A stretch of DNA of 32,000 bases from an uncultured Candidatus Saccharibacteria bacterium (GTDB lineage: Bacteria; Patescibacteriota; UBA1384; XYA2-FULL-43-10; 1-14-0-10-43-13), in the NCBI GenBank assembly GCA_964543385.1, contig CAZIYE010000001.1, forward strand, positions 150,001 to 182,000. Direction: 5' to 3'. The translations under genes and the position numbers were made by a program. How positions within the stretch are numbered: position 1 is the stretch's first letter; each line of letters begins with the position of its first letter. Of the stretch, positions 6,561-20,944 are shown piece after piece. The notes beneath the pieces were generated by a model. That model searched no databases, was not told the DNA's origin, and saw nothing but the letters and a program-made list of their open reading frames with translations.

Positions 6561-6583
6561 AAAAAGGCCCATAAAAACACTGA

Positions 6584-6610
6584 AACCCCACCGCGCGATG
6601 CGATGGGGTT
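6584..6610 (-). terminator. GC-rich 11-bp hairpin just downstream of the island-1 gene
   Basis: The minus strand reads AACCCCAUCGC-AUCGC-GCGGUGGGGUU (one G-U pair), followed by TCAGTGTTTTTATG. It sits in tandem with the terminator at 6521-6560. Confidence 0.55.
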
Positions 6611-6652
6611 CAGGAACATTTGCCTCAGGATGAGGCGGGAGGATGCTGCCCC

Positions 6653-7363
6653 TTACGGGGTAGTATCCTCCCAGGAATTCTTCACCTCCCAGCGGACGCC
6701 GGCATGGCGTCCACGAGCGTTGAAGGTCCTCTTCTCGCCGGGCTGGCGGGCGGGACGCGTGTCCCACTCGCCGAACAAGTTGCCCACCAGGGCGGCCACG
6801 TTGGTCCGCAGAACCAGGACCAGAACGACGGCCACGATCAACAACCACCACCAATTGGCGGCCAGCCAGTTAATTACTGCCATGGGATCTCCTGCCGGGG
6901 TTACCGGCGGCGTCGACGTAGTCGGCGCGGTCGTGCCGGGGGTGGCCGGCGGAGTAGTTGCAGGTAGGGATGCAAGCGGCGCAAGGCCGTACTTGTCTTC
7001 GAGCAAGCGAATTACCGCTCCCTCAGTGATATAGCCGCGATCTTGCAACCAAGCATCGACTTTCGCCTGACTTTCCGGCGTACCCCCAAGGGGGTTTGCT
7101 TTCAGATAGGCGATGTCAGACTGGATCTTGGTGATCTGATACTTGATGTCCCGGATCTCACTCTGGACTCGGCGGGTACCTGCACGGTCACCCTGGCATA
7201 TATATTCCCGAAGGATTACTTGCCGTTCAGCGACTTGTTGCTCTTTTGTAGCAATCTGCTGCTGAAGCTGGGGAACCGGGGTACCAGCGTCGGGCCCGAG
7301 TTGAGCGAATGCCGCTACGGTAGCGGCGAGCATGATGGCGATCAGGATGATCGTTTTCTTCAT
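6653..7363 (-). CDS. Island-1 orphan: Sec-secreted coiled-coil protein with a Pro/Thr-rich linker and a C-terminal TM anchor (236 aa)
   Basis: ATG start with GGGAGAAC upstream. Signal peptide MKKTIILIAIMLAATVAAFA followed by QLGP. Heptad-like region QQQIATKEQQVAERQ...IRDIKYQITKIQSDIAYLK. Linker PATTPPATPGTTAPTTSTPPVTPAG. TM helix WWWLLIVAVVLVLVL. Counted lines give 60-73% GC against about 35% for the backbone. Confidence 0.75.
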   Translation of the reverse strand: MKKTIILIAIMLAATVAAFAQLGPDAGTPVPQLQQQIATKEQQVAERQVILREYICQGDRAGTRRVQSEIRDIKYQITKIQSDIAYLKANPLGGTPESQAKVDAWLQDRGYITEGAVIRLLEDKYGLAPLASLPATTPPATPGTTAPTTSTPPVTPAGDPMAVINWLAANWWWLLIVAVVLVLVLRTNVAALVGNLFGEWDTRPARQPGEKRTFNARGRHAGVRWEVKNSWEDTTP

Positions 7364-7581
7364 GGTGTTCTCCCGCTGTATGGTGGCGACCCGCTCGATT
7401 GTGAATTTTTTTATTACCGAGCAAACAAGATAGAAAAGTGTAAATTCAGGCGCTCAAAAGCGCCGTTTAAGCGTAATTTCTACTCTCTTTGCTCAGTAAT
7501 ACTATTTAATTGTTAAGGTACTTTGTGCTCATATTCACCCTTTTAGGGTAAACAAAAGGCGACACTGTTCTGCATAACTCG

Positions 7582-7654
7582 ATAGGCGGAGGGGGAACCT
7601 ATTTCCCTGATAAATCAGGGAAGTTGAGCTATGCAGGACGCTGCCGCCTGCATA
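7582..7654 (-). promoter_or_regulatory. Three adjacent stem-loops within the long leader upstream of the island-1 gene
   Basis: Stem ATAGG/CCTAT at 7582-7602 has minus-strand loop UUCCCCCUCCG. Stem TTCCCTGA/TCAGGGAA at 7603-7622 has loop UUUA. Stem TATGCAGG/CCTGCATA at 7630-7654 has a 9-nt loop. GGCGG at 7586-7590 could alternatively pair with CCGCC at 7643-7647. Confidence 0.5.
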
Positions 7655-7772
7655 TTGACCACTTATATTAGATACTGACTCTGTTTCCTCCATCGTGCAG
7701 TTGTCTATTATTAGTTGTCTTTGGGATTGTTTTGATACTTGCTCGGCCACTTTCCTAACCGTGCATATTTAT

Positions 7773-7801
7773 ATTATACAATATTTATTTTAATTTGTCA
7801 A
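7773..7801 (-). promoter_or_regulatory. Consensus sigma-70 promoter P2 (TTGACA-17-TATAAT) firing toward the island-1 gene
   Basis: On the minus strand the -35 TTGACA is at 7796-7801 and the -10 TATAAT is at 7773-7778, with an exact 17-nt spacer. The predicted leader to the ATG at 7363 is about 400 nt. Confidence 0.65.
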
Positions 7802-7840
7802 TAGATATTGATACTTTCTGTGACAATATGCTGGCAATCC

Positions 7841-7865
7841 ATACGGCCGGAGGGGGGGGCCGTAT
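7841..7865 (-). other. GC-rich hairpin with a C-rich loop (ATACGGCC-CCCCCCUCC-GGCCGUAU on the minus strand)
   Basis: An 8-bp perfect stem at 7841-7848/7858-7865 with a 9-nt loop. It is flanked by 13-nt direct repeats at 7824-7836 and 7889-7901. Confidence 0.6.
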
Positions 7866-7984
7866 CTACAATTAAATGCTAGGATTACCAACATGCTGGC
7901 ACAGACTTAATACAAATCAGACTCATAATTTGTTACTATTTATTCCTCCTGAGAATTCCACCTCGCCTACCCTCAGAACATCGC

Positions 7985-8013
7985 ATTGTAACATAACAAA
8001 AATACTTTGTCAA
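7985..8013 (-). promoter_or_regulatory. Near-consensus sigma-70 promoter P1 (TTGACA-17-TACAAT)
   Basis: On the minus strand the -35 TTGACA is at 8008-8013 and the -10 TACAAT is at 7985-7990, with a 17-nt spacer. The -35 lies inside the 3' arm of the upstream terminator. Confidence 0.55.
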
Positions 8014-8034
8014 GACGAATCCCAACAAAGTATT
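7994..8034 (-). terminator. Intrinsic terminator of the 9678..8055 operon
   Basis: A 10-bp stem AATACTTTGT/ACAAAGTATT (8025-8034 and 8001-8010) is followed on the minus strand by TTTGTT. Confidence 0.65.
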
Positions 8035-8054
8035 TATATCAGATTAAAACAGCA

Positions 8055-8348
8055 CTACAAATTGGAAATTTCGTCTCTGATTCTTTTTAGCTCGAAGCTT
8101 TTGTCTACTTCACTCTCTATATTATCCAGCTCCTCTAAAGATTTCTTTATCTGCAGTAGCTCTGTTATATAGGCTTTATTTATATTATTACTCAGCTCTA
8201 TATACTCTTCAACAAGATTCACATAATACTCACCCTGATCCTCTTTCGTCCATTCGGAGTTAATAAATGTCTTGAGAAGCGCTTTAGCTTCATCGTATTT
8301 CCCTTGGCTAAGCAATTCGTTAAATTGAACATTATCTAAATTTGGCAT
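8055..8348 (-). CDS. Hypothetical small helical protein (97 aa)
   Basis: ORF 19 nt downstream of the 436-aa gene, with a terminator after it. No family recognised. Confidence 0.55.
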   Translation of the reverse strand: MPNLDNVQFNELLSQGKYDEAKALLKTFINSEWTKEDQGEYYVNLVEEYIELSNNINKAYITELLQIKKSLEELDNIESEVDKSFELKRIRDEISNL

Positions 8349-8367
8349 AATTTGCCTTTCATAAAAA

Positions 8368-9678
8368 TTAAATAGTTTTGACTGCTTGAGTTCTTCCTAG
8401 CATCAATGTCAGTTGTGCTGCTCTAGGTGAACTCTTCTCCGCAACTGGTATTGCTGTAAGCTCAGCCTGTATGACACTCTCCATCATATCTCTGGCTGCC
8501 TTGTTACTGATATTGGCATGGAGAAAGTTATTAAATTGTCCCATTTTTGTAGTGCTGATAGCCCTTGCGTCTTTACCCAGATCAGCTGATGACGTAACTT
8601 CTCTTTTATAAACCTCAGTCATCATTTTTTGCATTTCTGCATCAAATGCTGGATCGCTACCGCCCCATACATCACCCATTTCATCTAGAGTTGAAGCTGC
8701 ATCATCGGTATCGAATACCTTATCTTTAGCTTTTTTGCCCGGACCCTTGATGATGGCATCTTTTGCTATCTTTAAGAGAGTATCGCGTAGAGTATCAAAA
8801 TCCTCTAGGTTATCCAATATCTCTTTGCGGGTAACACCAATTTGTTCAGTAAGGGTAGCTTTCTCCGTTGCTTTGACAGCGATATCTTTACTAGCCTCTG
8901 CTAGTCCCTTGATCCTTTCATCTAATTTTTTCTGAGAAAGTTCATATTGCTGTTTTTCAGCAAGCTCTCCATCTGACAATCTTTGTCTACCAAAAGATCT
9001 TAGAGTATTTTTAAATCTACCCCACCCGTTGAATCTTTCTTTACCGATTTTATCTTTAGCATCAGTATAAGCTGTTTCATTACCTGTTCTTACATCTGCC
9101 CCCTTATCCGCTTGAAGCTGCCAAGCAGCAGCAGTCTCAGTAAGACCCTCTTGAGTTAATTGGTGGTCCTTCAATTTATATTTAGATTTTAATTCCTGAT
9201 CAATCTTCTTTGCATCATCAGTAAATTTATTGAAATCATCAATCAGTTTCATATATTTCTCAGCGAAGTCCGGATCAGTTGCAGCCTTTTTGCCGAGATG
9301 AGATTCTATAGCATCACTAGCCTCCTTGAGGTTATCACCTTGAATAATCTTTAGCTTGCCTACAAATTCGTCAGACAAGAATTTCTTGAATTTATCCAAG
9401 GCAGGCTTAATCTTTGTATCATAATTTTCTGCCCAACTTGCAATCTCAGTAATATTGCCAGCCCCTGCTAAATAAGCGTTCATATCCAGGCTCTTTTCTT
9501 TTTGCGCTCTTGCCTGAACATATGCAAAAAAACCAGGGTCTCCGAGCTTGGCCTCGACATTTGCCTGGTCATATAGATTTGCATTTTCAGTGGAAATATT
9601 CCCCATCTCCTGACGAACGTCAGCCTCTGGAAGACTTTGAGCGCTTGGTACATCGACACTATATTTTCCCTCTACCAT
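8368..9678 (-). CDS. Hypothetical alpha-helical protein (436 aa)
   Basis: ATG preceded by GGAGGTGAT. K/E/D/A-rich helical-looking sequence. No family recognised. Confidence 0.65.
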   Translation of the reverse strand: MVEGKYSVDVPSAQSLPEADVRQEMGNISTENANLYDQANVEAKLGDPGFFAYVQARAQKEKSLDMNAYLAGAGNITEIASWAENYDTKIKPALDKFKKFLSDEFVGKLKIIQGDNLKEASDAIESHLGKKAATDPDFAEKYMKLIDDFNKFTDDAKKIDQELKSKYKLKDHQLTQEGLTETAAAWQLQADKGADVRTGNETAYTDAKDKIGKERFNGWGRFKNTLRSFGRQRLSDGELAEKQQYELSQKKLDERIKGLAEASKDIAVKATEKATLTEQIGVTRKEILDNLEDFDTLRDTLLKIAKDAIIKGPGKKAKDKVFDTDDAASTLDEMGDVWGGSDPAFDAEMQKMMTEVYKREVTSSADLGKDARAISTTKMGQFNNFLHANISNKAARDMMESVIQAELTAIPVAEKSSPRAAQLTLMLGRTQAVKTI

Positions 9679-9747
9679 ATCACCTCCGAATTATATTTAT
9701 GATTATTATCACAAAAATAATTAGATAGTGTCAAATAAATGAGACTA

Positions 9748-10881
9748 TTATTTCTTCAGTTCTTTCATTAGATATAGGTATTGCCAAAGATTATGAAGTG
9801 TAGTCAGCCGTAATCCTAATATTTCTTTAGATCTTAAAAGGTGTGAAATATATGCTTTGCTAAATCCTTTACCATTTTTACAAGACGGACAGGCACAATC
9901 TATGTCTATTACATCAGAGTCAGTGCGATATTGAGAATTCAAAAGATTAATAAGTTTATATTCGTCCCCTTCTACTTTCCCCGCTCCCCTTTCTGCTTTT
10001 ACATAGACATTCCCATGTCTAGCAAGCCGCGTTGGTAAAACACAATCAAACATATCCATCCCAAGTTTTGTGGCTTTAATTATATCATCGGGAGTACCGA
10101 CACCCATCAGATATCGCTGTTTTTTTTCTGGTAGCATCTCACCCATTTGTTTCACAATATCCCACATTTCCCGTGTCTCTAAGTCAACTGCAAGACCGCC
10201 AACTGAGTAACCATCAAAATCAAGCGCTATTAGTTCTTTTGCTGATTTTTCTCTTAGATCTGGATAAAGTCCACCTTGGACAATACCATGAAGCAACGGA
10301 CGCTTCTCCACCGGTAAATCTTTTATTTGTAAATCAAAATATTCTTTTGCTCTCTTCGCCCAGACAGTTGTCAGTCTGATAGCTTCTTCCACAATCTTTT
10401 TGGAAGCGTTTCCGCTCGGACAAACATCGAGAGGCATTAATATATCAACTCCCAGATCTAGTTGTATTTGAATAACTTTTTCGGGAGTAAATAAGTGTTT
10501 ACTACCATCAAGAAATGATTTGAATTCCACGCCATCCTCAGTAATCTTGACTAAGGAAGCATCTTTTTTGTTTCCCCTATCACTAAGAGAAAACACTTGA
10601 TAGCCACCGGAGTCAGTGAGAATAGGGCGATCCCATTTCATAAAATTATGAAGCCCTCCTAATTCCTTTATCAATTTCTCACCTGGTCGGAGATACAGAT
10701 GATAAGTATTGGATAAAACAATTTGAGCCCCCAGATTTTCCAACTCTTCTGGAGAAACAGATTTCACACTGCCAACCGTACCGACAGGCATGAAAAAAGG
10801 CGTCTCGATCTTACCGTGAGGTGTATCAAGCTCGCCGATACGAACACCATTATCTAATTTTTGTATAAGTTTAAAAGACAT
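9748..10881 (-). CDS. tgt: Queuine tRNA-ribosyltransferase
   Basis: The translation carries typical TGT blocks: FMPVGT, LSNTYHL, TDSGGYQVFS, LMGVGTPDDI, and a zinc site C-x-C-x2-C (DCACPSC) with a downstream His. Confidence 0.9.
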   Translation of the reverse strand: MSFKLIQKLDNGVRIGELDTPHGKIETPFFMPVGTVGSVKSVSPEELENLGAQIVLSNTYHLYLRPGEKLIKELGGLHNFMKWDRPILTDSGGYQVFSLSDRGNKKDASLVKITEDGVEFKSFLDGSKHLFTPEKVIQIQLDLGVDILMPLDVCPSGNASKKIVEEAIRLTTVWAKRAKEYFDLQIKDLPVEKRPLLHGIVQGGLYPDLREKSAKELIALDFDGYSVGGLAVDLETREMWDIVKQMGEMLPEKKQRYLMGVGTPDDIIKATKLGMDMFDCVLPTRLARHGNVYVKAERGAGKVEGDEYKLINLLNSQYRTDSDVIDIDCACPSCKNGKGFSKAYISHLLRSKEILGLRLTTLHNLWQYLYLMKELKK

Positions 10882-10895
10882 ATTTGTTTTGTTGT

Positions 10896-10931
10896 GTGGT
10901 CAGGTCCTCCAAAGGAGGAGGGCCTGACCAC
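10896..10931 (-). terminator. GC-rich hairpin at the 3' end of island 2, with no U-tract
   Basis: GTGGTCAGG pairs with CCTGACCAC, plus an inner CCTCC/GGAGG helix with an AAA/TTT loop. It lies 19 nt after the island-2 stop and 15 nt before the tgt ATG. Confidence 0.5.
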
Positions 10932-10950
10932 GGAAGACCGACGATGTATC

Positions 10951-11295
10951 TTATATCAGTTCACTGCTGACACAGCAGAGGTCGATGACCTCTTGTCCGA
11001 TCTGACGAATAACCGTCGCGTACTCGTCATCGCCGAAATCGGACGAGCCGATCCACTGAATCTGGGCACCGATTGCCTCAGCAATCTTAACCGCCGTGTG
11101 GAAACTGCCAATCAGCTCTTCAGTTGGTGCATTCCGACAAATCGAAGCCGGAACTGACTCCAAGCAAGCTGCCAGAACCTCAAGCGGTAGCATGCGGCTA
11201 CCCAGACTTGACGTGCTTTCGACTCCGTAGATATCGTCATGTAGACGACGACGAAGCACATAAAGCGCATCTTGAAACCCATTAATGGCATCCAT
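10951..11295 (-). CDS. Island-2 orphan: small acidic cytoplasmic protein (114 aa from the preferred ATG)
   Basis: The track ORF begins at a GTG that is part of the RBS TAGGAGGTG. The ATG at 11295 lies 8 nt after GGAGG. No signal peptide. A counted line gives about 53% GC. No family recognised. Confidence 0.6.
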   Translation of the reverse strand: MDAINGFQDALYVLRRRLHDDIYGVESTSSLGSRMLPLEVLAACLESVPASICRNAPTEELIGSFHTAVKIAEAIGAQIQWIGSSDFGDDEYATVIRQIGQEVIDLCCVSSELI

Positions 11296-11315
11296 AAGTG
11301 CCACCTCCTAACATT

Positions 11316-11344
11316 TTTATAACATTTTTAGCAAAGATTGTCCA
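11316..11344 (-). promoter_or_regulatory. Candidate promoter for the island-2 gene (TGGACA-17-TATAAA)
   Basis: On the minus strand the -35 is at 11339-11344 and the -10 at 11316-11321. It lies in the AT-rich spacer between the rplL terminator and island 2 and overlaps a tandem AACATTTTTA x2 repeat. Confidence 0.4.
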
Positions 11345-11361
11345 TGACAGAGTCCGCCACG

Positions 11362-11389
11362 AAAAAAGAGCCCTTGCGGACTCTTTTTC
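11362..11389 (-). terminator. Bidirectional-type intrinsic terminator after rplL
   Basis: The minus strand reads AAAAAGAGUCC-GCAA-GGGCUCUUUUUU: a GNRA loop, an A-tract before the stem and a U-tract after it. Confidence 0.8.
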
Positions 11390-11421
11390 CAATATTCAAG
11401 ACTCTATATTATAGACTCTGA

Positions 11422-11826
11422 CTATTTCATTTCGACAGTTGCGCCAGCAGCTTCAAGTTTTGCTTTTGCAGCTTCAGCATCTTCTTTTTTAGCACCCTTT
11501 AGAACTTCTTTTGGAGCACCATCAACAAGATCTTTTGCTTCTTTAAGACCTAGATCAGGTTTGATCTCTCGAACAGCCTTAATAACATTGATCTTCTGAG
11601 CACCAGCGGCAGACAAGATAACATCGAAAGATGTTTTCTCTTCAACAGCTTCAGCAGGAGCAGCAGCACCACCAGCAACCATGGCAACTGGAGCAGCAGC
11701 AGATACGCCGAATTTCTCTTCAAGAACTTTTACAAGCTCTGCAAGGTCAAGAACTGATAGGTTCTCAATCTTTTCTACTAGTTCCTTGAATTTCTCAGGA
11801 ACAACAACTTCTTTTTTCTCTTCCAT
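11422..11826 (-). CDS. rplL: 50S ribosomal protein L7/L12
   Basis: Typical L7/L12 N-terminal helices, an Ala-rich hinge, and the C-terminal domain [11 protein letters not shown]...LKEAKDLVD...EAGA. Confidence 0.95.
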
Positions 11827-11878
11827 TGTAAACCCTTTACTTAAATATTTATTAATAAAATACTAACTTACTTATTTT

Positions 11879-12400
11879 TTAAGCTTTTTTCTCTTTATAA
11901 GAATTCAATACATTTACCAAACCACGGATATTGCCTGCCAATACGTTGACCATCCCGGACAATGGTGCTGATATTGAACCGACCATCTTTGCCAATAATT
12001 CCTCTCGACTAGGAAGCAATGCAAGTCTTTTAACAGCTGATGCGTCAATCATCTTTTTTTCCAAGATACCAGCAAGAATTTCAATTGCTTCATGTTTCTT
12101 TGCAAAAAGATCGATTTCCTTTGCAGGTGCAACTTCATCTTCCATTGCGAAAGCAATCGCTACAGGTTTTTTGAAGATATTCTCATCAAATTCAATACCA
12201 TGCTTTTTCAATGCGATTTTAACCAAGGTATTTTTTGCAACATTGAATTGAACACCCTTTGCTCTCAAGATATTTCTCAGTTCTTCTGTTTCATTAACCT
12301 TCAAACCTTTATAGTCAACAATAACTGCAGATTTAGCAATCTGTAATTGACCATCTAACTTTGAAATTAACTCTTCTTTTTTTTGCTTTGTTTTTGCCAT
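11879..12400 (-). CDS. rplJ: 50S ribosomal protein L10
   Basis: L10-like translation located immediately upstream of rplL. Confidence 0.9.
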   Translation of the reverse strand: MAKTKQKKEELISKLDGQLQIAKSAVIVDYKGLKVNETEELRNILRAKGVQFNVAKNTLVKIALKKHGIEFDENIFKKPVAIAFAMEDEVAPAKEIDLFAKKHEAIEILAGILEKKMIDASAVKRLALLPSREELLAKMVGSISAPLSGMVNVLAGNIRGLVNVLNSYKEKKA

Positions 12401-12588
12401 TTTTTATCCGTATTTTTAAATATTAATAATTCTTAACAAAAAATCCTGCGACCAACGCAGGAAATAATAATTAAACTCTATAGCTCAGAACCTATAACTT
12501 TTAATTATCCTGCACGAGACTTACTTCAGATGAATGCTTGTGGTCATTGGGATAAAATTACTATAGCAAAAAGTGGTATAGACGTCAA
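12401..12588 (-). promoter_or_regulatory. rplJ promoter (TTGACG-17-TATAGT) plus an L10-leader-like 5' UTR ending in an attenuator terminator
   Basis: The -35 is at 12583-12588 and the -10 at 12560-12565. The leader ends in UCCUGCG-UUGGU-CGCAGGA plus U6 (12437-12462), about 35 nt before the rplJ ATG. This matches the known L10(L12)4 autoregulatory leader arrangement. The family assignment has not been checked against a covariance model. Confidence 0.55.
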
Positions 12589-12595
12589 CAGTTTC

Positions 12596-12630
12596 AAAAA
12601 CCGCCCATGCAGCAATGCTTGAGCGGTTTT
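12596..12630 (-). terminator. Intrinsic terminator after rplA
   Basis: The minus strand reads AAAACCGCUC...GGGCGGUUUUUG. Confidence 0.65.
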
Positions 12631-12650
12631 CTTTAGAACTTTATAACTTT

Positions 12651-13478: not shown

Positions 13479-13577
13479 TTTTCTCCTTTGTGGTACAAGC
13501 GTCCAAAAGATTAGACTCCCACTTAATTTAGTAATACTTTATTCTTATAACAAAAAAACTGTTTTTTGACAAGGAAA

Positions 13578-13599: not shown

Positions 13600-13604
13600 T
13601 AGGT

Positions 13605-13720: not shown

Positions 13721-13751
13721 AGTTGCTCGGAGTTAAATTTGATTTTAAAAA

Positions 13752-14414: not shown

Positions 14415-14477
14415 TAATTTATCATTTCATTATTTTCCATTTAAATGGGTAATGAAAAACGATCAATGAGCAATTGA

Positions 14478-14783: not shown

Positions 14784-14866
14784 CTGTCTCCTTAGTAACT
14801 TACTTAATAATTTATTAAATTTACTTATATATTTTTACAATCTTGTCCAAATATTTTTCCGGTTGC

Positions 14867-15640
14867 TCATCTCTTGAAAAGTTTTGATAGAGCAAAAATA
14901 ATAATACTGAAAACAAAGGCTAAAATCAACAACAGGAGTATCGGGGATAGTAATACTAATATGCGATCAGTTGGAAAATTGACCATCTCCAAAAAGCTAA
15001 ACTTAAAATAAAAAATTATGGCAGCTAAAAATATGAGTAGCAACGCTGGAATCAAAATATTTTTCATGTCCTGTTTACTAGGAGTCATTGTAACCGCAAC
15101 AGAAAGAGCTAGATAAATAATTATCCAATTTTTATAATCAGATAGATTTATAGCGGAAACTAAATTCTTAAAATAACTTATTAGATCTTGATACTTGAAA
15201 GCAATAACATTTAAATCATATTCCTTCATACCAATCCAGCTTGAGAGGAAATAAATTGCGACAACTCCGGCAGCAAATGGAGCAATAGATATAAGGACTG
15301 GACCAATCACTGGTATTTTTGAAGATTCATGCTCTACACTACCACCGTCCTTGTCAAATAAAGAAATGCTTTTTATCTTTGCGCCAGTCAAAAAGCAAAG
15401 AAGTGCATGAGACAATTCATGCAAAATTACACCTGGCGATACAAAAAGGCGATACCCTAATCCTAAAAATGAATTAACAAGAAGACGATCAATCGCAAAA
15501 GAGATAAATAATATCAACAAAATACAAATCATGAGCTCCACTTCCCTAGACTGGAAATCAAATTTTAGAATAGGCCAAGAGAACCCATCTAATAACTCAG
15601 AGAAATAACTACTGATATTATCAATGTATGAATTTATCAT
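14867..15640 (-). CDS. Polytopic membrane protein with an intramembrane HExxH motif (M50B-like metallopeptidase)
   Basis: VILHELSHALLCFLTGAKIKSISLFDKDGGSVEH resembles the Peptidase_M50B signature. Several hydrophobic helices are present. Confidence 0.6.
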   Translation of the reverse strand: MINSYIDNISSYFSELLDGFSWPILKFDFQSREVELMICILLILFISFAIDRLLVNSFLGLGYRLFVSPGVILHELSHALLCFLTGAKIKSISLFDKDGGSVEHESSKIPVIGPVLISIAPFAAGVVAIYFLSSWIGMKEYDLNVIAFKYQDLISYFKNLVSAINLSDYKNWIIIYLALSVAVTMTPSKQDMKNILIPALLLIFLAAIIFYFKFSFLEMVNFPTDRILVLLSPILLLLILAFVFSIIIFALSKLFKR

Positions 15641-15658
15641 ATACCCTCCAGATAGTTT

Positions 15659-16684
15659 CTACTCTTTATTTTCTACTTTTCTTAGCTCTGCGTCTATAAA
15701 TCCACCTATATCACCGCCCAAGACTTCATCCGGATTCTTCGATTCAAATCCAGTCCGATGGTCTTTAACTAATTTATATGGATGCAGCACGTATGATCTT
15801 ATTTGATTCCCCCACTCAGGAGATGCAAAGTTGCCTTTCAACTCTTCGACTCTCTCTTTCTGCTGTTCAATCATCAATTGAGCAAGACGGGAACGCAGAA
15901 CTTTCATCGCCATTTCTTTATTTTGCAATTGGCTTCTCTCATTTTGACATATAGAGACAATTCCGGTTGGAATATGAGTTATTCTCACAGCTGAATCAGT
16001 AGTATTTACAGATTGACCACCGTGACCACCTGCGCGATATACATCGATTCGCAAATCATTTTGATCAATTACAACTTCTTTCTCTGTTTCGATTTCAGGC
16101 AGGACTTGAACAAGAGCGAAAGAAGTCTGACGCAAAGCCTTAGCATTAAATGGTGATTGTCGGACTAATCGGTGAACTCCGGATTCACCACTTAGTTTGC
16201 CATAGGCATAGGGACCATTTACCTCCACCACAGCGCTCTTTATCCCTGCTTCAGTACCCTTGGATTGGTCAATGATATTTGTATCGAAATTATTTTGTTC
16301 TGCCCAACGCAGATACATTCGAAGAAGCATCTCGGTCCAATCTTGGGCATCGACACCACCAGCCCCGGCATAAAAGTTTAGAATTGCATTGTGCTGATCA
16401 AATTTTCCATTAAAAAAAGTTAGCTTCTCTAATTCGGCGATTTCGCCGCTCAGTGATTCTAGCTCGCTATCGTTAGCGATTTCTGCAATATCACTTATCT
16501 CGTCGAAACGGCTGACCTCGTCTTTTAGATTCTTTAGCTCTTTATTTCGCTTGTTTGCTCTTACTTCGTCTAACCAGAAATCAGGCTCCATCATCTCGCC
16601 TTCTATGCCAATAATCATCTCTTTTTTCTGATCTATGTTGAGTATTTTTCGCAAATCTTCTATTTTTTGTCTTAGATTTTCCAT
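15659..16684 (-). CDS. prfB: Peptide chain release factor 2, encoded in a single uninterrupted ORF
   Basis: The SPF motif (RQSPFNA) and GGQ motif (GGHGGQSVNTTDSAVRITHIPTG) are both present. Confidence 0.9.
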   Translation of the reverse strand: MENLRQKIEDLRKILNIDQKKEMIIGIEGEMMEPDFWLDEVRANKRNKELKNLKDEVSRFDEISDIAEIANDSELESLSGEIAELEKLTFFNGKFDQHNAILNFYAGAGGVDAQDWTEMLLRMYLRWAEQNNFDTNIIDQSKGTEAGIKSAVVEVNGPYAYGKLSGESGVHRLVRQSPFNAKALRQTSFALVQVLPEIETEKEVVIDQNDLRIDVYRAGGHGGQSVNTTDSAVRITHIPTGIVSICQNERSQLQNKEMAMKVLRSRLAQLMIEQQKERVEELKGNFASPEWGNQIRSYVLHPYKLVKDHRTGFESKNPDEVLGGDIGGFIDAELRKVENKE

Positions 16685-16711
16685 GCCATTATCCTAACAC
16701 AAAGTAAATAT

Positions 16712-16741
16712 AAAATCACCCCGCGAATGCAGGGTGATTTT
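16712..16741 (-). terminator. Intrinsic terminator after the DUF11 surface-protein gene
   Basis: The minus strand reads AAAAUCACCCUGC-AUUC-GCGGGGUGAUUUUAU. Confidence 0.75.
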
Positions 16742-16752
16742 ATTATTAGACT

Positions 16753-18294
16753 TTATTTTTTCAAGAGTGAAAGCATCTTTCTCGACTTAACATAGTAAAT
16801 CGATAACATACCTGTCAGAGTGAAAAGTAAGCTTAATAGCGGTGTACTTGGTCCAGTCATTGGCAAAGCTGGAGTGACTGCTATAGGAGTTACAACAATT
16901 TTTGTTTTAGCGATATCATTTAAAGTCTGATTATCAAACCGAAGAGTTGCAGTGTTCACTAGTATTTCTCCAGTTGCGATTCCAGATGATATTTTAACTT
17001 TAAATTTGATAATGCCGTCTTCATTTTTGCCCAAAGAACCAATTTTGATTCCATCAAAGATAGCCTTGTTACCTAAAGCGGTGCTAACACCATTTCTGAT
17101 AAGAGAAGCACTGCCATTTACAAATGAAACATTTGCAGGTAAAACATCGCTTATTGTAATGTTATCAGCTTTTTCACCAGAGTTTGCAAAGAATATCTGA
17201 TATTCCAGAACATCTCCGGGTTTAGCTTGATTTTCTTTCGAAAAGCCAGCCTCGTTTATAGTAACGTTTCGAACTGATTTCTCAATTCGCAGCGTTGGTT
17301 GACCAGGAATTATCTTGCCGATATTTACAAAAACTAAGTTTCCATAAATATTTTCCATAATACCATCGAAATGTTTTCCGTCTTGGGTATTTGTAGGCTG
17401 AGGATTCTTAACTATTACCTTAAAGGTCCTTACGTTTGTCTCTCCTGCAACAATTCTAACTGCAGGGTAGCTGATTACACCGTTTGACAAAGTACCACCG
17501 ATTGAGGCGCTAGTAAAATCTGCCAGCTCTAAGATATCGCTTATGTCATCAGTGACAGTGAAGTCAGTTGCTGCATTTCCTGTGTTCTTTGTCGTTAGAG
17601 TGTAAAGAACCTCATCACCCGGATTTGCTGAAATATTTACGCCCTCGGCGCCAGATACTAAATTCTTAGCAATCTTACTCTTTACTATATTTGGTGTAGG
17701 CATTTTGATTGTCTTGAATTGAAACAAAACATATCCAATATGTTCCCAACAACCTCTTACATCACCTATTTTTAATCCACCAGTAGTGAGAAGTTCATCG
17801 CCATTCTGGCTAAATAAAAGGTCAGACGGAGGAGTACCAAAACTTTTAAAATCTGGAAACCATTGTACTGATCCAGGAATCATAACTACATTTGCATCTG
17901 TATCTAGATTGACAGTTAAACTGTCAAAAACAGTAGAGGCGTTATCTGCGGAAATTGCAGTATTGATAACTATCTTTTTGTTACTTGACACTGAAGGCAA
18001 GCTAACTTTGACTCGAGTATCACGAGCTGTGGTATCTACTACGCCATTGTGGTAGTAAATAATTGCTGCAAAAGTATCGCCAGCAAGACCATCAACTGGT
18101 TTACGCCACGAAACTTCACCTGCAGACTTGTTTGCACCACGTATTTGTTGAAGATCATCTTTCAAGTAATTGAACCTTGGACCAGATGCATTTACAGACA
18201 AAGCCGGTGCGATTAATTGTGATAGCAATGCAGAAACAAGCGCTATTCCTAGCACTTTCTTCCACCCTCCAGTGATTTTTTGGATCAAATTCAT
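16753..18294 (-). CDS. Cell-surface protein with DUF11-type repeats and a C-terminal LPXTG-like sortase signal
   Basis: N-terminal signal/TM segment VLGIALVSALLSQLIAPALSVNA. DUF11-like blocks GDEVLYTLTTKNTGNAATDFTVTDDI and GDVLEYQIFFANSGEKADNITISDVLPANVSFV. Sorting signal LPMTG, then a hydrophobic stretch, then KSRK. Confidence 0.8.
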   Translation of the reverse strand: MNLIQKITGGWKKVLGIALVSALLSQLIAPALSVNASGPRFNYLKDDLQQIRGANKSAGEVSWRKPVDGLAGDTFAAIIYYHNGVVDTTARDTRVKVSLPSVSSNKKIVINTAISADNASTVFDSLTVNLDTDANVVMIPGSVQWFPDFKSFGTPPSDLLFSQNGDELLTTGGLKIGDVRGCWEHIGYVLFQFKTIKMPTPNIVKSKIAKNLVSGAEGVNISANPGDEVLYTLTTKNTGNAATDFTVTDDISDILELADFTSASIGGTLSNGVISYPAVRIVAGETNVRTFKVIVKNPQPTNTQDGKHFDGIMENIYGNLVFVNIGKIIPGQPTLRIEKSVRNVTINEAGFSKENQAKPGDVLEYQIFFANSGEKADNITISDVLPANVSFVNGSASLIRNGVSTALGNKAIFDGIKIGSLGKNEDGIIKFKVKISSGIATGEILVNTATLRFDNQTLNDIAKTKIVVTPIAVTPALPMTGPSTPLLSLLFTLTGMLSIYYVKSRKMLSLLKK

Positions 18295-18411
18295 TTTTTT
18301 CCTTAATCCTCTAGCTAAAAGCTATCGGCACTTTCATAATTGTTATTACTTTTTTAAATTTAACTCTCTATATATATTAATAGCCATTATGGTTAGCAAT
18401 TGCAATGGACT

Positions 18412-18510
18412 CATCTCCGAAAGTATGAATAAATCATAACTTCGGGATGAGGGGGTGCGCGCCTTTCAACAGGCACCCCGCTCAAGTTAGTTGCCACCGG
18501 GTACGGTGGC
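18412..18510 (-). terminator. Cluster of three hairpins at the 3' end of island 3
   Basis: GCCACCG-UACC-CGGUGGC lies at 18493-18510. GAG-C-GGGGUGC...GCACCCC-CUC lies at 18449-18483. An imperfect stem of about 12 bp, CATC(C)CGAAGT/ACTTTCGGAGATG, lies at 18412-18449. None has a clear U-tract. Confidence 0.45.
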
Positions 18511-18517
18511 GGGCGTC

Positions 18518-19282
18518 CTAATACGGGACGCCAGGTTCGGGAATCGGCCCCGCACCAGGCCAATGCCCACAGCTCTGGCTCGTCCCCCCACAAAACGGGC
18601 AGCGGAATAGCCATAGCAGGCCAAGCCGCCACTCCATCACCGGCTCTTTCTGCCAGAATGGCATCCGGTCCGGGGTGAGTCCCGACTTGGCGAAGCAAAG
18701 CTTTGATATGATCACTGCTTGCTGTTCGCGGGTTGGGAGCGGCTTTTGTGCAGCCACCGTTGGCTTATCGAGACTGATCGCCTCGAGGCACCATTGGTCG
18801 ACAGTGGCAGTTGCCATGACGCCGGTATACGGCAGCTTTTGAGGGCAAATAATCCGGACATACCAGTCAATACGTGTGAGTAACTGCGTAATGATCTGGT
18901 ATGCCAGGTCGACTTCTTCAAACGTCCTGCAGAGGTAGATCGGGGTGTGGATGATGTCCAGTTGGAGCATCAGCACAAGCCCATTCTTCACTGAAGGAGT
19001 CATATGTCGACCCTTCTTTGCCCAATAGCAACGGTAACGCTCGATTTCGGCGTAGTCATACGCCGTTAACGTGCGCTTTTCTGCGACCCGCTGAACGGTA
19101 ACCTTCACCCAATCGCATTGCTGCGAAGAATAGGTTTGTCCATCCGAAGTCCAGGAAGGAACAGTCGGTGCCGGCGTGGTTGCCGACTGAGTGCTTGCTT
19201 GCGGCACTCCCGCGTTATTACCCATCTCGGCCATCACCGGCAAGCCGGCAAGGACGAGAATCAGGGCCATGATCATTTTCAT
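18518..19282 (-). CDS. Island-3 orphan B: Sec-secreted Cys-containing protein (254 aa from the preferred ATG)
   Basis: The ATG at 19282 lies 7 nt after GGAGGTG, which overlaps the upstream gene's TAG stop (TAGGAGGTGTGCAGATG). Signal peptide MKMIMALILVLAGLPVMA followed by EMG. P/T-rich segment TQSATTPAPTVPSW. The track start at 19354 is a TTG inside the upstream gene. Confidence 0.7.
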   Translation of the reverse strand: MKMIMALILVLAGLPVMAEMGNNAGVPQASTQSATTPAPTVPSWTSDGQTYSSQQCDWVKVTVQRVAEKRTLTAYDYAEIERYRCYWAKKGRHMTPSVKNGLVLMLQLDIIHTPIYLCRTFEEVDLAYQIITQLLTRIDWYVRIICPQKLPYTGVMATATVDQWCLEAISLDKPTVAAQKPLPTREQQAVIISKLCFAKSGLTPDRMPFWQKEPVMEWRLGLLWLFRCPFCGGTSQSCGHWPGAGPIPEPGVPY

Positions 19283-19293
19283 CTGCACACCTC

Positions 19294-20586
19294 CTAAAGC
19301 GGCAGGACGATGACGTTTGAAACGCCAGGGCGGTAAGTGATCATCTCTGACCAATTCCGACCATCAGTTGAATATTTCAGATTATATTCATATGACACGA
19401 GGTTTCCATTCACACGCTCACCGATGGCAGCATTGTTTATAGGAATATCCCCAGGAGCATATGGACCGAAGACTCGCCCTTGCGGGTAAGCACGATCATA
19501 CAATCTAATCCACACCTTCTTTGAAGTGCGGAAGCAGTAGTTTCCATGGACCACTTCTGTTTGTTTCTGAGTGGTAACGGAAGACGATATGCCGGGTGCC
19601 GGCGCTTTGAGATACTCGATGACTTGCACCAGGGTTAACTGGTGATTGGCAACGAGTTGCCTTAAACGCTGAATCTCGGCCTCGGTTTTACCCGAGTTCC
19701 GAGCGACGACTTGAATCGCCTCCCAAACCTTCAAGTCAAAAGCTTCACAAGCAGCCACACGGGCTTCAAGATTGGCAATTTGGACAAGAAGACTGGAATC
19801 ATCGTAGGCAGGAACAGAAGTGATGCCTCCACCAGTCAGCCCAGTACCGGTACTACCCATCGCCTTGTCATTGGCAAGTAAGGTCTCGAAGACGAGCCCG
19901 TTACCACCATTGCCAGCGCGACGAAGCAGATCGGTCAAGTACTGAACTGAAGGAGCGGAACAGTTGGCAGGCCAACACTCCGTTTTGAAGCGGAGAGTGT
20001 CGACCATTGCTGACAGGTTAGTTTTTCCTGCCCACTTGATCTTGAAGAGGATCAAGTTTATAGCTTTGTCGTTGCGTTTTCCATCCTGGACCAACGCATA
20101 GAAACGGAAGCAATGCAGATCAGCACCAACAGCTACCTCAAGAGGCATCTCTAGGTACCAGCGCCCGCCAGCGTCCCGTTTGAGAACCAGCACACCCGGA
20201 GTTGTAAACGACCAGGTATTGGTCCTGCGATCATAGCTATACTCGAGCTTTTTCTCTAGCTCGCCTTGTGCAGCGACCATCGCCACCACCGGCATGTCAG
20301 CGAGGACGTTAGGGTATACCTTCATGGTTGCCCCAATCCCCACAGGAAATGTGCCGAGGTACGAGGTCTCTGCCTCGTCCCATTGCCAGGTGACTGCTTG
20401 CGCATAAGTCACCTGCACCTGGACTTTTCCACTGGTAACCTGCTGCGATGCCTGTTCAGTATAGACCGGACCGTCTAGGACGGCACCAGTTGCACCGAAT
20501 GGAGCAGCACTTGCTGGCGTGATTGCCAGCGCGCCAACCATTAAGGTCAGCAATACGAGGCCAATTACGGCCAGCGGGTTACGCAT
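19294..20586 (-). CDS. Island-3 orphan A: Sec-secreted protein with a beta-rich N-terminal part, a central coiled coil and a C-terminal beta-rich domain (430 aa)
   Basis: The ATG at 20586 is preceded by AAAGAGGAGGAACGCAG. Signal peptide MRNPLAVIGLVLLTLMVGALAITPASA followed by APFG. Heptad-like LLVQIANLEARVAACEAFDLKVWEAIQ...IQRLRQLVANHQLTLVQVIEYLK. Counted lines give 52-58% GC. Confidence 0.75.
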   Translation of the reverse strand: MRNPLAVIGLVLLTLMVGALAITPASAAPFGATGAVLDGPVYTEQASQQVTSGKVQVQVTYAQAVTWQWDEAETSYLGTFPVGIGATMKVYPNVLADMPVVAMVAAQGELEKKLEYSYDRRTNTWSFTTPGVLVLKRDAGGRWYLEMPLEVAVGADLHCFRFYALVQDGKRNDKAINLILFKIKWAGKTNLSAMVDTLRFKTECWPANCSAPSVQYLTDLLRRAGNGGNGLVFETLLANDKAMGSTGTGLTGGGITSVPAYDDSSLLVQIANLEARVAACEAFDLKVWEAIQVVARNSGKTEAEIQRLRQLVANHQLTLVQVIEYLKAPAPGISSSVTTQKQTEVVHGNYCFRTSKKVWIRLYDRAYPQGRVFGPYAPGDIPINNAAIGERVNGNLVSYEYNLKYSTDGRNWSEMITYRPGVSNVIVLPL

Positions 20587-20612
20587 CTGCGTTCCTCCTC
20601 TTTCATTTTTGG

Positions 20613-20643
20613 GGTACCTCTCGCCACCAGGCGAGGAGGTACC
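20613..20643 (-). promoter_or_regulatory. GC-rich hairpin in the 5' UTR, about 25 nt upstream of the island-3 RBS
   Basis: The minus strand reads GGUACCUCCUCGCC-UGGU-GGCGAGAGGUACC (13 bp with one bulge), followed by CCAAAAAUGAAAGAGGAGGAAC. Confidence 0.55.
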
Positions 20644-20944
20644 TGATTGCAAGAAAATTGAGACGATTGGATTGCTCCGATTTCGTCTGCAAGGAAGTAT
20701 TATTTATTCGAGATCAATTGATAGCTTTTATCTGCCTACTTCTAGCTATCACTCGAAGAATAAATTCTTCTATTGCAGCTGAAATTGCTTCTAAACATTT
20801 TCACTGATTTTTATTCTATTTGATTTTTAATTGCCATTTTTTAGCAATTCATAAATTATCTATAGTTGAAATAATTTATTTTTGTGAGATTTTATATATT
20901 TTACAATTTTTAAATATACTATTGTGACTTCAATCGCCTTTTGC

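Follow-up and report, generated by a model that had tools for sequence, protein, structure and literature searches.

Three GC-rich blocks in the window, the whole 32,000-nt stretch of DNA analysed here, are real, occupy conserved slots, code for proteins under constraint, undergo allele replacement (documented at C3) and have stayed GC-rich over long divergence. We consider it probable that these blocks (cassettes C1, C2 and C3) are old Candidatus Berkelbacteria accessory units, with alleles recombined between lineages and a GC-rich codon class that is actively maintained. The cassette proteins are clade-restricted orphans, three of them predicted to be secreted or surface-anchored; where on the cell they sit, what selects on them and what keeps their GC high are inferred.

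Composition and integrity of the blocks

The mean GC of the window is 39.9%, and the backbone lies mostly at 0.30–0.43 in 300-nt windows. A preliminary description had reported three sharp high-GC blocks with transitions at intergenic gaps. Both points held: likelihood change points (6586/7398 for C1, 10894/11228 for C2, 18443/20695 for C3) were found a few tens of bases from the edges first proposed and fall in intergenic DNA, with GC peaks in 300-nt windows of 0.63 at 6601–7050, 0.53 at 10951–11250 and 0.50–0.63 over 18451–20700. The third codon positions follow (GC3 = 0.67 for C1, 0.52 for C2, 0.54 for C3a and 0.65 for C3b), 5–9 SD above the mean of 23 backbone genes (0.317, SD 0.040), and all three codon positions are shifted. 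AGA and AGG make up 9% of arginine codons in the cassettes versus 59% in the backbone. Relative synonymous codon usage of the cassettes correlates positively among themselves and with the GC-rich genes of relatives, whereas correlation with the backbone is negative or absent; the codons in excess are those that ribosomal-protein genes avoid. One further gene, orf958 (3564–6440; 45% GC), was considered as a fourth cassette and was not counted because its GC3 (0.30) is backbone-like. The DUF11 neighbour of C3, with an LPMTG-type C-terminus, appears to be a surface protein and yet has a GC3 of only 0.29, the backbone level; export alone is therefore insufficient for GC-richness.

An assembly or binning artefact had also been proposed. 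Four independent contigs match the window at 100% identity over all six junctions (junction-spanning contigs from Logan SRR12261227 and SRR12261225 and JGI 3300045131), and the gene order recurs in at least 8 other samples, so we dismiss this explanation. A chimera, or GC-rich structured RNA genes in place of protein-coding ones, has in our estimate next to no probability. In AT-rich genomes, islands of high GC frequently turn out to be RNA genes, and long ORFs arise easily in GC-rich DNA, with many overlapping ORFs present in the cassettes. Against the RNA reading, however, the proteins are conserved in the annotated frames (omega 0.11–0.28 over the cassette genes; many invariant columns in protein alignments A1 and A2), no cassette matched Rfam, and no conserved pairing was found inside the C3b coding sequence.

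Genes and non-coding elements of the three units

The features of the units are as follows (start codons of C2, C3a and C3b as revised here).

6541–6652, minus strand: C1 3' UTR, GC-rich, with two terminator-like U-tract hairpins (6611–6583 and 6560–6541) and the lower GC boundary at about 6586
6653–7363, minus strand: C1 gene, 236 aa, from ORF and translation
about 7469–7450, minus strand: terminator-like hairpin GGCGC-TTTTGA-GCGCC downstream of the C1 leader or sRNA
7490–7670, minus strand: conserved structured leader or sRNA 5' of C1, a three-way junction and then a hairpin
7773–8013, minus strand: two consensus promoters flanking a second conserved non-coding block upstream of C1
10898–10929, minus strand: GC-rich hairpin GGTCAGG…CCTGACC 3' of C2, without U-tract, ending 16 nt before the tgt ATG
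10951–11295, minus strand: C2 gene, 114 aa from ATG 11295, AGGAGG 8 nt upstream
11316–11344, minus strand: native tgt promoter TGGACA-17 nt-TATAAA, from alignment, conserved in relatives without C2
18417–18517, minus strand: C3 3' UTR, three hairpins, none with a U-tract, GC change point at 18443
18518–19282, minus strand: C3b gene, 254 aa from ATG 19282, signal peptide, RBS overlapping the C3a stop codon
19294–20586, minus strand: C3a gene, 430 aa from ATG 20586, signal peptide (…PASA/A)
20613–20643, minus strand: conserved GC-rich C3a leader hairpin GGTACCTCCTCGCC-TGGT-GGCGAGAGGTACC, about 12 nt upstream of the GAGGAGG RBS
20938–21098, minus strand: rod-like conserved non-coding RNA (about 160 nt) in the dus–C3a gap
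21228–21256, minus strand: promoter TTGACA-17 nt-TAAAAT downstream of dus, 11/12 matches, TG extension

Much of the architecture that the preliminary description had claimed to be shared was recovered. All units lie on the minus strand, co-oriented with the backbone; strong RBSs (AGGAGG, GAGGAGG or GGGAG) sit 7–8 nt 5' of the ATG; none of the four proteins has a family match in Pfam, PHROGs, PADLOC, NCBIfam or PDB; and signal-peptide-like N-termini were seen by inspection in three of the four (C1 AFA/Q, C3a ASA/A, C3b VMA/E; topology, too, was judged by eye), with none in C2. Mobility features were likewise lacking, with no tRNAs, no long flanking repeats, no att sites, attC-like shared repeats or arrays at the cassettes, and no integrase or transposase among the Pfam tags of called genes. 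Two generalisations needed narrowing. A host-style promoter ahead of each unit holds for C2, which lies behind the conserved native tgt promoter, but for C1 and C3a the promoters closest to consensus are 400–650 nt upstream, with a conserved structured non-coding RNA in between. GC-rich 3' hairpins without U-tracts are found at C2 and C3, but C1 ends in U-tract terminators.

C1 (GC 0.596, GC3 0.671) has a signal peptide (…AAFA/Q), a Q/E-rich coiled-coil-like segment, a Pro/Thr-rich linker, a C-terminal transmembrane helix (WWWLLIVAVVLVLVL) and a basic tail. It can be read as a stalk-like protein, exported via Sec and anchored in the membrane by its C-terminus. The exact protein is present in NCBI, JGI and Logan assemblies, and its one homologue, P0017 (41–49% protein identity, GC3 0.69), occupies the same slot in relative L092; omega is 0.28. 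The intergenic region is better conserved between the window and L092 (80% identity) than the protein itself, and the leader or sRNA within it (MFE –64.6 kcal/mol, z = –6.3; no Rfam match) shows three compensatory pairs in this comparison. Upstream, the promoters at 8013–7985 and 7801–7773 match the consensus at 11/12 and 12/12 positions, and the conserved block between them (about 7905–7810) holds the hairpin ACGGCC-CCCCCCTCC-GGCCGT.

C2, in its called form P0003 (114 aa), has a homologue, P0024, of 34–37% identity over its full length in the rplL–tgt slot of L094 (GC3 0.62). In L005, L098 and L013, which have no C2, the tgt promoter almost directly abuts the tgt ATG; in the window, the complete C2 unit lies between the –10 box of that promoter and the tgt start codon, an arrangement in which the promoter would drive C2 and then tgt. 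Since the C2 hairpin, missing in relatives without C2, lacks a U-tract and ends so close to the tgt start codon, transcriptional read-through into tgt is likely. In L014 the rplL–tgt slot is filled, on the opposite strand, by a GC-rich gene that resembles aminotransferases; this looks like ordinary horizontal transfer.

C3a and C3b are predicted to be a co-transcribed pair of secreted proteins. C3a has beta-rich domains, with a coiled-coil insert at its centre and a beta-sandwich at its C-terminus (omega 0.13–0.16); its AF2 model has a pLDDT of 53 overall and about 80–89 for residues 343–431, and no significant fold match was obtained with it. C3b (omega 0.11–0.21; AF2 pLDDT 41, not usable) carries a conserved AGVPQ motif. 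Its central region occurs in two non-homologous types, and its C-terminal domain of about 100 aa, rich in invariant Cys, Trp and Pro, ends in …CGHWPGxGPIPEPxVPY. The three hairpins of the 3' UTR (GCCACCG…CGGTGGC; a conserved GC-rich one at about 18484–18448; and a conserved CCGAAG…CTTTCGG at about 18445–18417) include one conserved in 7 taxa, and the exchanged unit has its 3' edge in this UTR. Immediately upstream of the C3a leader hairpin comes the upper GC boundary (about 20695). Beyond it, the rod-like RNA has 96.5% of cells paired and 10 compensatory pairs, versus 1–3 in slid controls, with no Rfam match at E ≤ 10; it is present once per relative, including L012, although C3a and C3b are replaced there, and is a backbone feature, not cassette cargo. 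The promoter downstream of dus is invariant in 6 relatives. Two conserved structured RNAs without Rfam match thus lie upstream of C3a and of C1.

Age, exchange and proposed upkeep of the GC-rich alleles

In diverged Berkelbacteria relatives, homologues of the cassettes were found in the slots that they occupy in the window: dus–DUF11 for C3, orf97–orf958 for C1 and rplL–tgt for C2. C3a and C3b lie between dus and DUF11 in L005, L098, L006/7, L008–10, L011 and L014, and so, wherever context is known, do the members of the 9-protein C3a family. Slots also turn over, with unrelated signal-peptide ORFs in the C3 slot of L012 and C2 missing from L005, L098 and L013. Synonymous sites are saturated between the window and every relative (pS 0.6–0.8), in backbone and cassette genes alike, and still in every genome cassette GC3 is 0.43–0.69 versus 0.30–0.50 in the backbone. 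Judged from these sequences, the cassettes have been GC-rich far longer than captured foreign DNA should stay so, and retention of GC despite saturation calls for a sustained force.

These data bear on the earlier proposal of repeated capture from a high-GC donor. Recent independent captures, for example from an episymbiont host, with placement under native promoters, would account for the strongly foreign look of composition and codon usage, for the insertion of C2 precisely at the junction of the native tgt promoter with its gene, together with the lack of C2 in several relatives, and for the aminotransferase-like gene of L014. Of this proposal the native promoter of C2 stands; the same-slot homologues in synonymously saturated relatives speak against recent capture for all three cassettes and contradict it for C1 and C3. 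No donor homologue was found in any searched collection (none outside a Berkelbacteria context in 5.8 billion proteins or with HMMER over 1.84 billion representatives), nor were integrases, transposases, att sites, tRNAs or flanking repeats. We regard recent capture as improbable.

Replacement of alleles is documented at C3 by one close pair, L005 and L098. Their backbone proteins are 96–100% identical and the flanks have dS of 0.13 (DUF11) and 0.27 (dus), whereas dS is 1.68 in C3a (71% amino acid identity) and 1.03 in C3b, at omega 0.11–0.14. Nucleotide identity falls from about 95% to 48–80% exactly across C3a–C3b, with internal blocks of 85–92%, and the matrix of C3a identities disagrees with the backbone. 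Because cassette dS so exceeds flank dS, the C3 alleles are much older than the surrounding backbone, which points to homologous recombination as the route by which lineages exchange them. An increase in dS could also come from a higher local mutation rate; the sole counter-evidence, the non-clock-like C3a matrix and the mosaic blocks, leads us to disfavour it. Three backbone genes of this pair also have raised dS (M50B 0.74, prf 0.53, tgt 0.52) and may be recombinant too; their GC3 is not raised, a point against the reading that we favour.

Composition-specific selection, another early suggestion, is compatible with the data and partly supported, in that cassette mRNAs are more structured than synonymous shuffles: fold z against local shuffles ranged from –1.7 to –5.9 in the 10 segments taken from cassettes or their orthologues, and from +1.0 to –2.6 in the 12 taken from the backbone (20–24 shuffles per gene, codon-junction dinucleotides not preserved). 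No conserved base pairs were found within the C3b coding region, so any selection on structure must be generic. To our knowledge, the cassette GC3 excess (+0.2 to +0.35) is far above the recombination-linked GC differences reported in bacteria. Upkeep of GC is most likely due to recombination-linked GC bias (GC-biased gene conversion, gBGC) at these recombination hot spots, to selection for GC-rich, highly folded, long-lived mRNAs, or to both.

Re-seeding of the slots from an unsampled GC-rich pool (higher-GC Berkelbacteria, phages, plasmids or host) would need no special force inside the genome, since repeated import would outpace amelioration. It agrees with allele replacement at C3, with a cassette GC3 of about 0.5–0.7 independent of the recipient backbone and with the shift in all three codon positions, expected from a genome of about 55% GC; the C3a of L006, whose GC3 (0.49) is near its own backbone (0.40–0.52), suggests that higher-GC relatives could be the native home. 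On the other hand, every homologue with known context lies in a Berkelbacteria backbone of 37–45% GC, searches of viral contigs, of phage and plasmid collections and, beyond the clade, of billions of proteins gave no match, and the GC3 of C1 (0.67–0.69) is higher than that of any backbone observed in the clade. We hold re-seeding to be possible but rather unlikely.

In the mechanism that we favour, long-lived units with maintained GC, each unit occupies a fixed slot (C1 between orf97 and orf958; C2 between the tgt promoter and tgt; C3a–C3b between dus with the conserved non-coding RNA and the DUF11 surface protein). Purifying selection acts on each allele, and the conserved flanks would serve homologous recombination, by which whole alleles are replaced between lineages, the units behaving as small replacement-type flexible islands. 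Such behaviour is typical of exposed structures on which hosts or phages impose diversifying or frequency-dependent selection. GC-richness would then be a stable trait of the exchangeable gene pool, GC3 being held near 0.5–0.7 whatever the backbone GC3 (0.30–0.50), and not the unameliorated scar of a recent capture.

Comparison with known systems

Bacterial genes that recombine have been reported to carry an excess of non-optimal GC-ending codons (Lassalle et al., 2015, PLoS Genet, PMC4450053). As with gBGC, the effect in the cassettes is strongest at third codon positions and acts mainly via non-optimal GC-ending codons; unlike there, other possibly recombinant backbone genes carry no GC3 excess. 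Average differences in that study are reportedly far smaller than the cassette excess, with its sharp edges. Horizontal islands, morons and integron gene cassettes share with our units the atypical composition and codon usage, the compact form with an RBS and 3' hairpin for each unit and, for C2, intercalation downstream of a resident promoter. Unlike them, the units have no integrase or transposase, att- or attC-like repeats, tRNA or array, and are slot-conserved in diverged relatives, with no donor lineage found in the searches.

Replacement-type flexible genomic islands and hypervariable surface loci include O-antigen and capsule loci and the Clostridioides difficile S-layer cassette. The cassettes differ from these in being very small (one or two genes, 0.4–2.2 kb) and 12–25 points GC-richer than the genome, classical replacement-type islands being typically AT-richer, and in encoding proteins of no known family in a candidate-phyla-radiation bacterium. 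They resemble them in keeping one position between conserved flanking genes in related genomes, in having deeply divergent or non-homologous alleles with sharp boundaries and synonymous divergence far above that of the flanks, and in carrying no mobility genes beside products that are predicted to be exported or exposed.

Composition and assembly of the GC-rich blocks

Mean GC of the window was 39.9%. In a 300-nt profile three GC-rich blocks were found, at 6601-7350 (0.56-0.63), 10801-11250 (0.49-0.53) and 18451-20700 (0.47-0.63), and the DNA flanking them had a GC of 0.28-0.40 within one profile step. The likelihood change points (6586/7398, 10894/11228 and 18443/20695) were each intergenic. 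The four genes in these blocks, referred to as cassette genes as opposed to the remaining backbone genes, are listed below; all genes of the region, cassette and backbone, lie on the minus strand.

Cassette genes (GC3, GC at third codon positions)
6653-7363, minus strand: C1, 236 aa, GC3 0.67
10951-11295, minus strand: C2, 114 aa counted from ATG, GC3 0.52
18518-19282, minus strand: C3b, 254 aa, GC3 0.65
19294-20586, minus strand: C3a, 430 aa, GC3 0.54

Backbone GC3 was 0.317 ± 0.040 (n = 23 genes), which places the cassette genes 5-9 SD higher. The GC excess was +0.2 to +0.35 at GC3 and about +0.1 at GC1 and GC2, and it was carried by non-optimal GC-ending codons, the lowest GC3 being that of the ribosomal-protein genes. 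AGA/AGG made up 59% of Arg codons in the backbone vs 9% in the cassettes, A-ending codons dropped from 32% to ~15%, and RSCU of cassettes and backbone was anti-correlated or uncorrelated. Synonymous codon choice is inverted in the cassettes relative to the backbone, with one signature, distinct from that of the backbone, common to all GC-rich genes. At C3 the GC-rich tract extends beyond ATG-to-stop, from the 5' hairpin to the 3' hairpins. The preliminary description of sharply bounded high-GC blocks, co-oriented with a low-GC backbone, was borne out by these GC steps, change points, GC3 values and gene orientations. The orphan gene orf958 adjoining C1 (3564-6440, minus strand; GC 45%, GC3 0.30) is not a fourth cassette, because its excess GC reflects a protein rich in Gly, Ala and Arg rather than codon usage.

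An assembly or binning artefact, one of the explanations first considered, was refuted, since the junctions recur in independent assemblies and the arrangement recurs in relatives. Four contigs (L001, L002, L003 and L004) were 100% identical to the window and jointly span all six block boundaries, and the exact C1 and C2 proteins were present on a 671,273-bp NCBI contig and also in Logan and JGI assemblies. The same slots were filled in the related genomes L005, L006, L008, L011, L014, L092, L094 and L098.

Contigs 100% identical to the window
SRR12261227_132203: window 1-11675
SRR12261225_78702: window 9691-21295
SRR12261225_84839: further stretch of the window
JGI Ga0485169_0202862: window 6381-7809

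No tRNA was found in a tRNA/tmRNA scan of the window, a repeat search found no flanking repeats or att duplications around the cassettes, and called genes carried no integrase or transposase Pfam domains. These scans and domain searches agree with the earlier statement that the cassettes lack integrase, transposase, tRNA-att duplication and flanking repeats. An integron cassette/attC array was rejected: no sequence is common to the hairpins that end C1, C2 and C3, there is no integrase, and the units are dispersed singly. Structured RNA genes as the identity of the cassettes were likewise rejected. Rfam gave 0 matches over the whole window at the gathering threshold, omega (a dN/dS type ratio) was <0.3 in the annotated frames, and no conserved base pairs were found within the C3b CDS, in its C-terminal region; the hairpin of the 3' UTR alone was conserved.

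Orphan proteins in fixed slots

The four proteins had not been placed in any family at first, and this held: searches of C1, C2, C3a and C3b against Pfam, PHROGs, PADLOC and NCBIfam returned sub-threshold noise only, and C3a and C3b had no match among PDB sequence profiles. Among 5.8 billion proteins searched, C3a had eight relatives (49-76% identity), C3b four (37-66%) and C1 one (41%). An exhaustive HMMER search gave one true relative of C2 (P0024, 34-37% identity); the matches to P0023, P0025 and P0026 were spurious, these being tandem-repeat SGNH-type proteins matched over a 40-residue low-information stretch. A metagenome scan for cassette homologues returned the same kind of contig only, viral contigs, the INPHARED phages and the PLSDB plasmids contained none, and all homologue matches lay in a Berkelbacteria context. 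Among named genomes, Candidatus Berkelbacteria MAGs come nearest (rplA 77-78% identical; next tier 42%). Judged by these searches, the cassette proteins are orphans apparently restricted to one clade.

Signal peptides, claimed for three of the four proteins, were again read by eye in C1, C3a and C3b, and C2 was without one. By inspection, C1 also carries a helical region rich in Q/E, a Pro/Thr linker and a TM helix at the C-terminus. C3a is made up of beta-rich domains, with a coiled-coil insert that two homologues lack. In C3b an AGVPQ motif and a strongly conserved Cys/Trp/Pro domain at the C-terminus were seen, and its central region comes in two unrelated types. AF2 models were weak, with one confident domain, a beta-sandwich at C3a residues 343-431, which had no significant neighbour among PDB structures.

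Every homologue with usable context was in the same slot as its window counterpart. In L005, L098, L006/7, L008-10, L011 and L014 the C3a-C3b pair is flanked by dus and the DUF11 gene; the C1 homologue of L092 lies between orf97 and the orf958 homologue, and the C2 homologue of L094 between rplL and tgt. This synteny comparison found C1 and C3 in every relative covering the slot, save L012, in which the C3 slot holds unrelated ORFs. C2 alone was patchy: the window and L094 carry it, and L005, L098 and L013 do not. Between the window and these relatives synonymous sites were saturated (pS 0.6-0.8), backbone and cassette alike. Cassette omega in the same comparisons was 0.13-0.28, and the cassettes are therefore real genes under purifying selection. 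We take them to be old residents of fixed slots.

GC3 of cassette homologues in relatives
C3a homologues: 0.43-0.58 (backbone 0.30-0.50)
C3b homologues: 0.49-0.65 (backbone 0.30-0.50)
C1 homologue: 0.69 (backbone ~0.40)
C2 homologue: 0.62 (backbone ~0.40)

Backbone-like GC of the same genes in relatives had been named as an outcome contrary to foreign origin; instead, the homologues were still GC-rich, from 0.43-0.58 for C3a to 0.69 for C1. By the standard amelioration argument, a compositional scar is expected to fade at about the synonymous substitution rate. At saturated divergence the scar should be gone, and the GC excess must therefore be maintained or continually renewed.

In other slots of this gene block, relatives carry further GC-rich genes (at rplA-rplJ in L013 and L014; several in L094; one resembling an aminotransferase in L014), so the pattern is lineage-wide. 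In L094, a more distant relative, extra GC-rich genes lie at 44-505, 8005-8922 and 9026-9550; GC3 was 0.68 for orf153 and 0.78 for orf174 of this contig, and a third gene, of 66% GC, encodes a protein that has a signal peptide and collagen-like GPQ repeats. These L094 genes extend the two-class pattern across the clade. The rplL-tgt slot of L014 holds, on the opposite strand (13453-14472, minus), a 339-aa ORF of 53% GC, class-III aminotransferase-like by eye (sequence partly masked with N), which looks like a different, ordinary acquisition in the slot that holds C2 in the window.

The DUF11/CLIPPER-domain protein adjoining C3 (16753-18294, minus strand) ends in …ALPMTGPST, a hydrophobic helix and a basic tail, which, read by eye, is an LPxTG-like sortase signal; the protein appears to be a surface protein. 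Its gene has a backbone-like GC3 of 0.29, and the L005 and L098 proteins share 98% identity. Export alone is therefore not enough for GC-richness or hypervariability, as this exported-looking protein is both backbone-like and conserved.

Allele replacement and conserved RNAs at the slots

The contigs L005 and L098 come from relatives that are, in the backbone, almost one organism. Their nucleotide identity was ~95% across 20 kb, dropped to 48-80%, with internal blocks of 85-92%, over exactly the stretch occupied by C3a and C3b, and was 97% again in DUF11. The dS excess over flanks listed below is documented for C3 only.

L005 vs L098, amino-acid identity and substitution measures
recR: 100%
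DUF11: 98%, dS 0.13
cysS: 97%
dus: 96%, dS 0.27
C3a: 71%, dS 1.68, omega 0.14
C3b: 84%, dS 1.03, omega 0.11

Positive selection as the cause of C3 divergence was rejected, as it cannot lift dS five- to thirteen-fold. The C3a identity matrix, in which L098 is 66% identical to the window, 67% to L011 and 71% to L005, contradicts a local clock running uniformly faster at C3. From the dS excess and the incongruent identity matrix we infer that the C3 alleles are much older than the surrounding backbone, and hence that they were exchanged by homologous recombination via the conserved flanks. M50B, prf, tgt and dprA also had a raised dS between L005 and L098 (0.44-0.74; neighbours 0.07-0.27), which suggests that recombination patches the backbone too, with GC3 not raised. 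Two related Berkelbacteria species, the window organism (L003) and an L005-like one (L098, Ga0485169_0001614), co-occur in JGI metagenome 3300045131, which gives an opportunity for the inferred allele exchange. Beyond orf97, the contig of L098 continues for a few hundred bases and stops near the C1 slot.

Slots can also lose their content or receive another. The C3 slot of L012 contains two signal-peptide ORFs unrelated to C3a/b by hhalign, and the content of the rplL-tgt slot varies among relatives. In alignment, the C2 unit (RBS, ORF and hairpin) is precisely bracketed by the conserved promoter of tgt and the ATG of that gene.

The spacers ahead of C3a and C1 contain the following elements.

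Non-coding elements beside the cassettes
21228-21256, minus strand: conserved promoter in the dus-C3a spacer
~21140-21085: short hairpin and T-run ahead of the rod-like RNA, overlapping its 5' arm
20938-21098, minus strand: rod-like RNA of ~160 nt, just downstream of dus
20613-20643, minus strand: conserved C3a leader hairpin
7773-8013, minus strand: two consensus sigma-70 promoters (12/12 and 11/12 matches) in the orf97-C1 spacer
7810-7905, minus strand: second near-invariant non-coding block, between the two C1 promoters, with hairpin ACGGCC-CCCCCCTCC-GGCCGT
7490-7670, minus strand: three-way-junction RNA
~7469-7450: terminator-like hairpin following the three-way-junction RNA

The rod-like RNA is present in one copy per relative, including L012, and is near-invariant across relatives with saturated synonymous sites. 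It has 60 predicted pairs, with 96.5% of cells paired, and ten compensatory pairs vs 1-3 in slid controls. The orf97-C1 spacer (690 nt) is 80% identical to that of L092, the C1 proteins being 41-49% identical, and its three-way-junction RNA is strongly folded (z = -6.3, three compensatory pairs). The order of promoter, junction RNA and terminator upstream of C1 would be a riboswitch-like layout. The RNA model of the dus-C3a element (R1) did not recur upstream of C1, and the two upstream RNAs are different elements. Rfam matches at E ≤ 10 in both long intergenic regions were chance-level miRNA, snoRNA and sRNA matches only. The C3a leader hairpin has CCUCCU in its 5' arm, with the C3a Shine-Dalgarno sequence GAGGAGG ~12 nt downstream; speculatively, CCUCCU could alternatively pair with the latter as a translational switch. 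We know of almost no RNA annotation in this phylum, to which this pair of conserved structured RNAs next to the cassettes adds new candidates.

Origin of the GC excess and comparison with known systems

Recent capture from a high-GC donor, proposed earlier, is not supported, apart from the promoter-capture anatomy of C2. The cassettes have the atypical composition and codon usage of captured foreign genes; against recent capture stand the lack of mobility signatures, residence in the same slots in relatives and the lack of a donor homologue in the collections searched. Continual import of alleles from an unsampled GC-rich pool would fit the independence of cassette GC3 from the recipient backbone, but the searches turned up no pool of this kind, and we favour it less than recombination-associated GC bias, selection on mRNA, or both; between these two our choice is of low certainty.

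Recombination-associated GC bias could keep the cassettes GC-rich. Recombining bacterial genes are reported to have a higher GC3 by way of non-optimal GC-ending codons (Lassalle et al., 2015, PMC4450053). The cassettes match such GC-biased gene conversion (gBGC) qualitatively in third-position excess and codon type. Evidence of recombination at a cassette locus is present; however, other possibly recombinant backbone genes here are without GC3 excess. The cassette GC excess is also far larger than any recombination-linked excess known to us.

Alternatively, selection on mRNA structure could keep the cassettes GC-rich. In a rough test against shuffles that keep protein and local codon usage, folding z was -1.7 to -5.9 for cassette genes and orthologues (n = 10), while the 12 segments taken from the backbone gave +1.0 to -2.6. 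The hairpin-to-hairpin extent of the GC-rich tract would also fit such selection. The composition-specific selection proposed earlier is thus still viable in that cassette mRNAs fold better than shuffles, although no specific CDS pairs are conserved.

As a possible rather than a probable synthesis, small Berkelbacteria genomes may each hold two codon-usage classes, an AT-rich housekeeping class and a GC-rich exchangeable, mostly secreted class in fixed slots, the latter held in situ, through divergence that saturates synonymous sites, by a sustained process. That process might be gBGC of exceptional strength at hot spots of recombination. It might instead be selection for long-lived mRNAs with a high degree of folding, which would act jointly with the conserved structured leader RNAs. 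The outcome would be a within-genome compositional compartment larger than any described, to our knowledge, for bacteria. No paper was found on these samples or on GC heterogeneity in Berkelbacteria.

Atypical composition is routinely taken as recent horizontal transfer or contamination. For these GC outliers that default reading is corrected here, a chimera being refuted and recent capture unsupported, and trimming of GC outliers by binning or decontamination pipelines would remove real genes, perhaps host-interaction genes of CPR genomes. As far as we know, the host-attachment molecules of episymbiotic CPR bacteria are largely unknown, and for interaction with hosts or phages, secreted orphan proteins that are hypervariable yet encoded in conserved slots are natural candidates. 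Bounded GC3 excess, persistence and allele replacement together make the cassettes a test case in which metagenomic population data could separate gBGC from mRNA selection in bacteria.

Among known systems, a recently acquired genomic island resembles the cassettes in atypical composition and codon usage, but they differ in having no mobility signatures and no donor-lineage homologues, and the orthologous site is empty only for C2. The cassettes come closest to the replacement-type flexible island or hypervariable surface locus, in unusual form. As in replacement-type islands, the cassettes keep one position between conserved flanks across related genomes, C3 alleles diverge far beyond their flanks with sharp edges and a dS excess, and non-homologous content can fill the same slot (L012; the C3b types; rplL-tgt). 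The cassettes may encode surface-exposed structures: signal peptides and the C1 TM helix were read by eye, no informative fold match was found, and C2 lacks a signal peptide. Unlike the replacement-type islands, the cassettes are very small and GC-enriched, consist of orphan genes and reside in a CPR bacterium.
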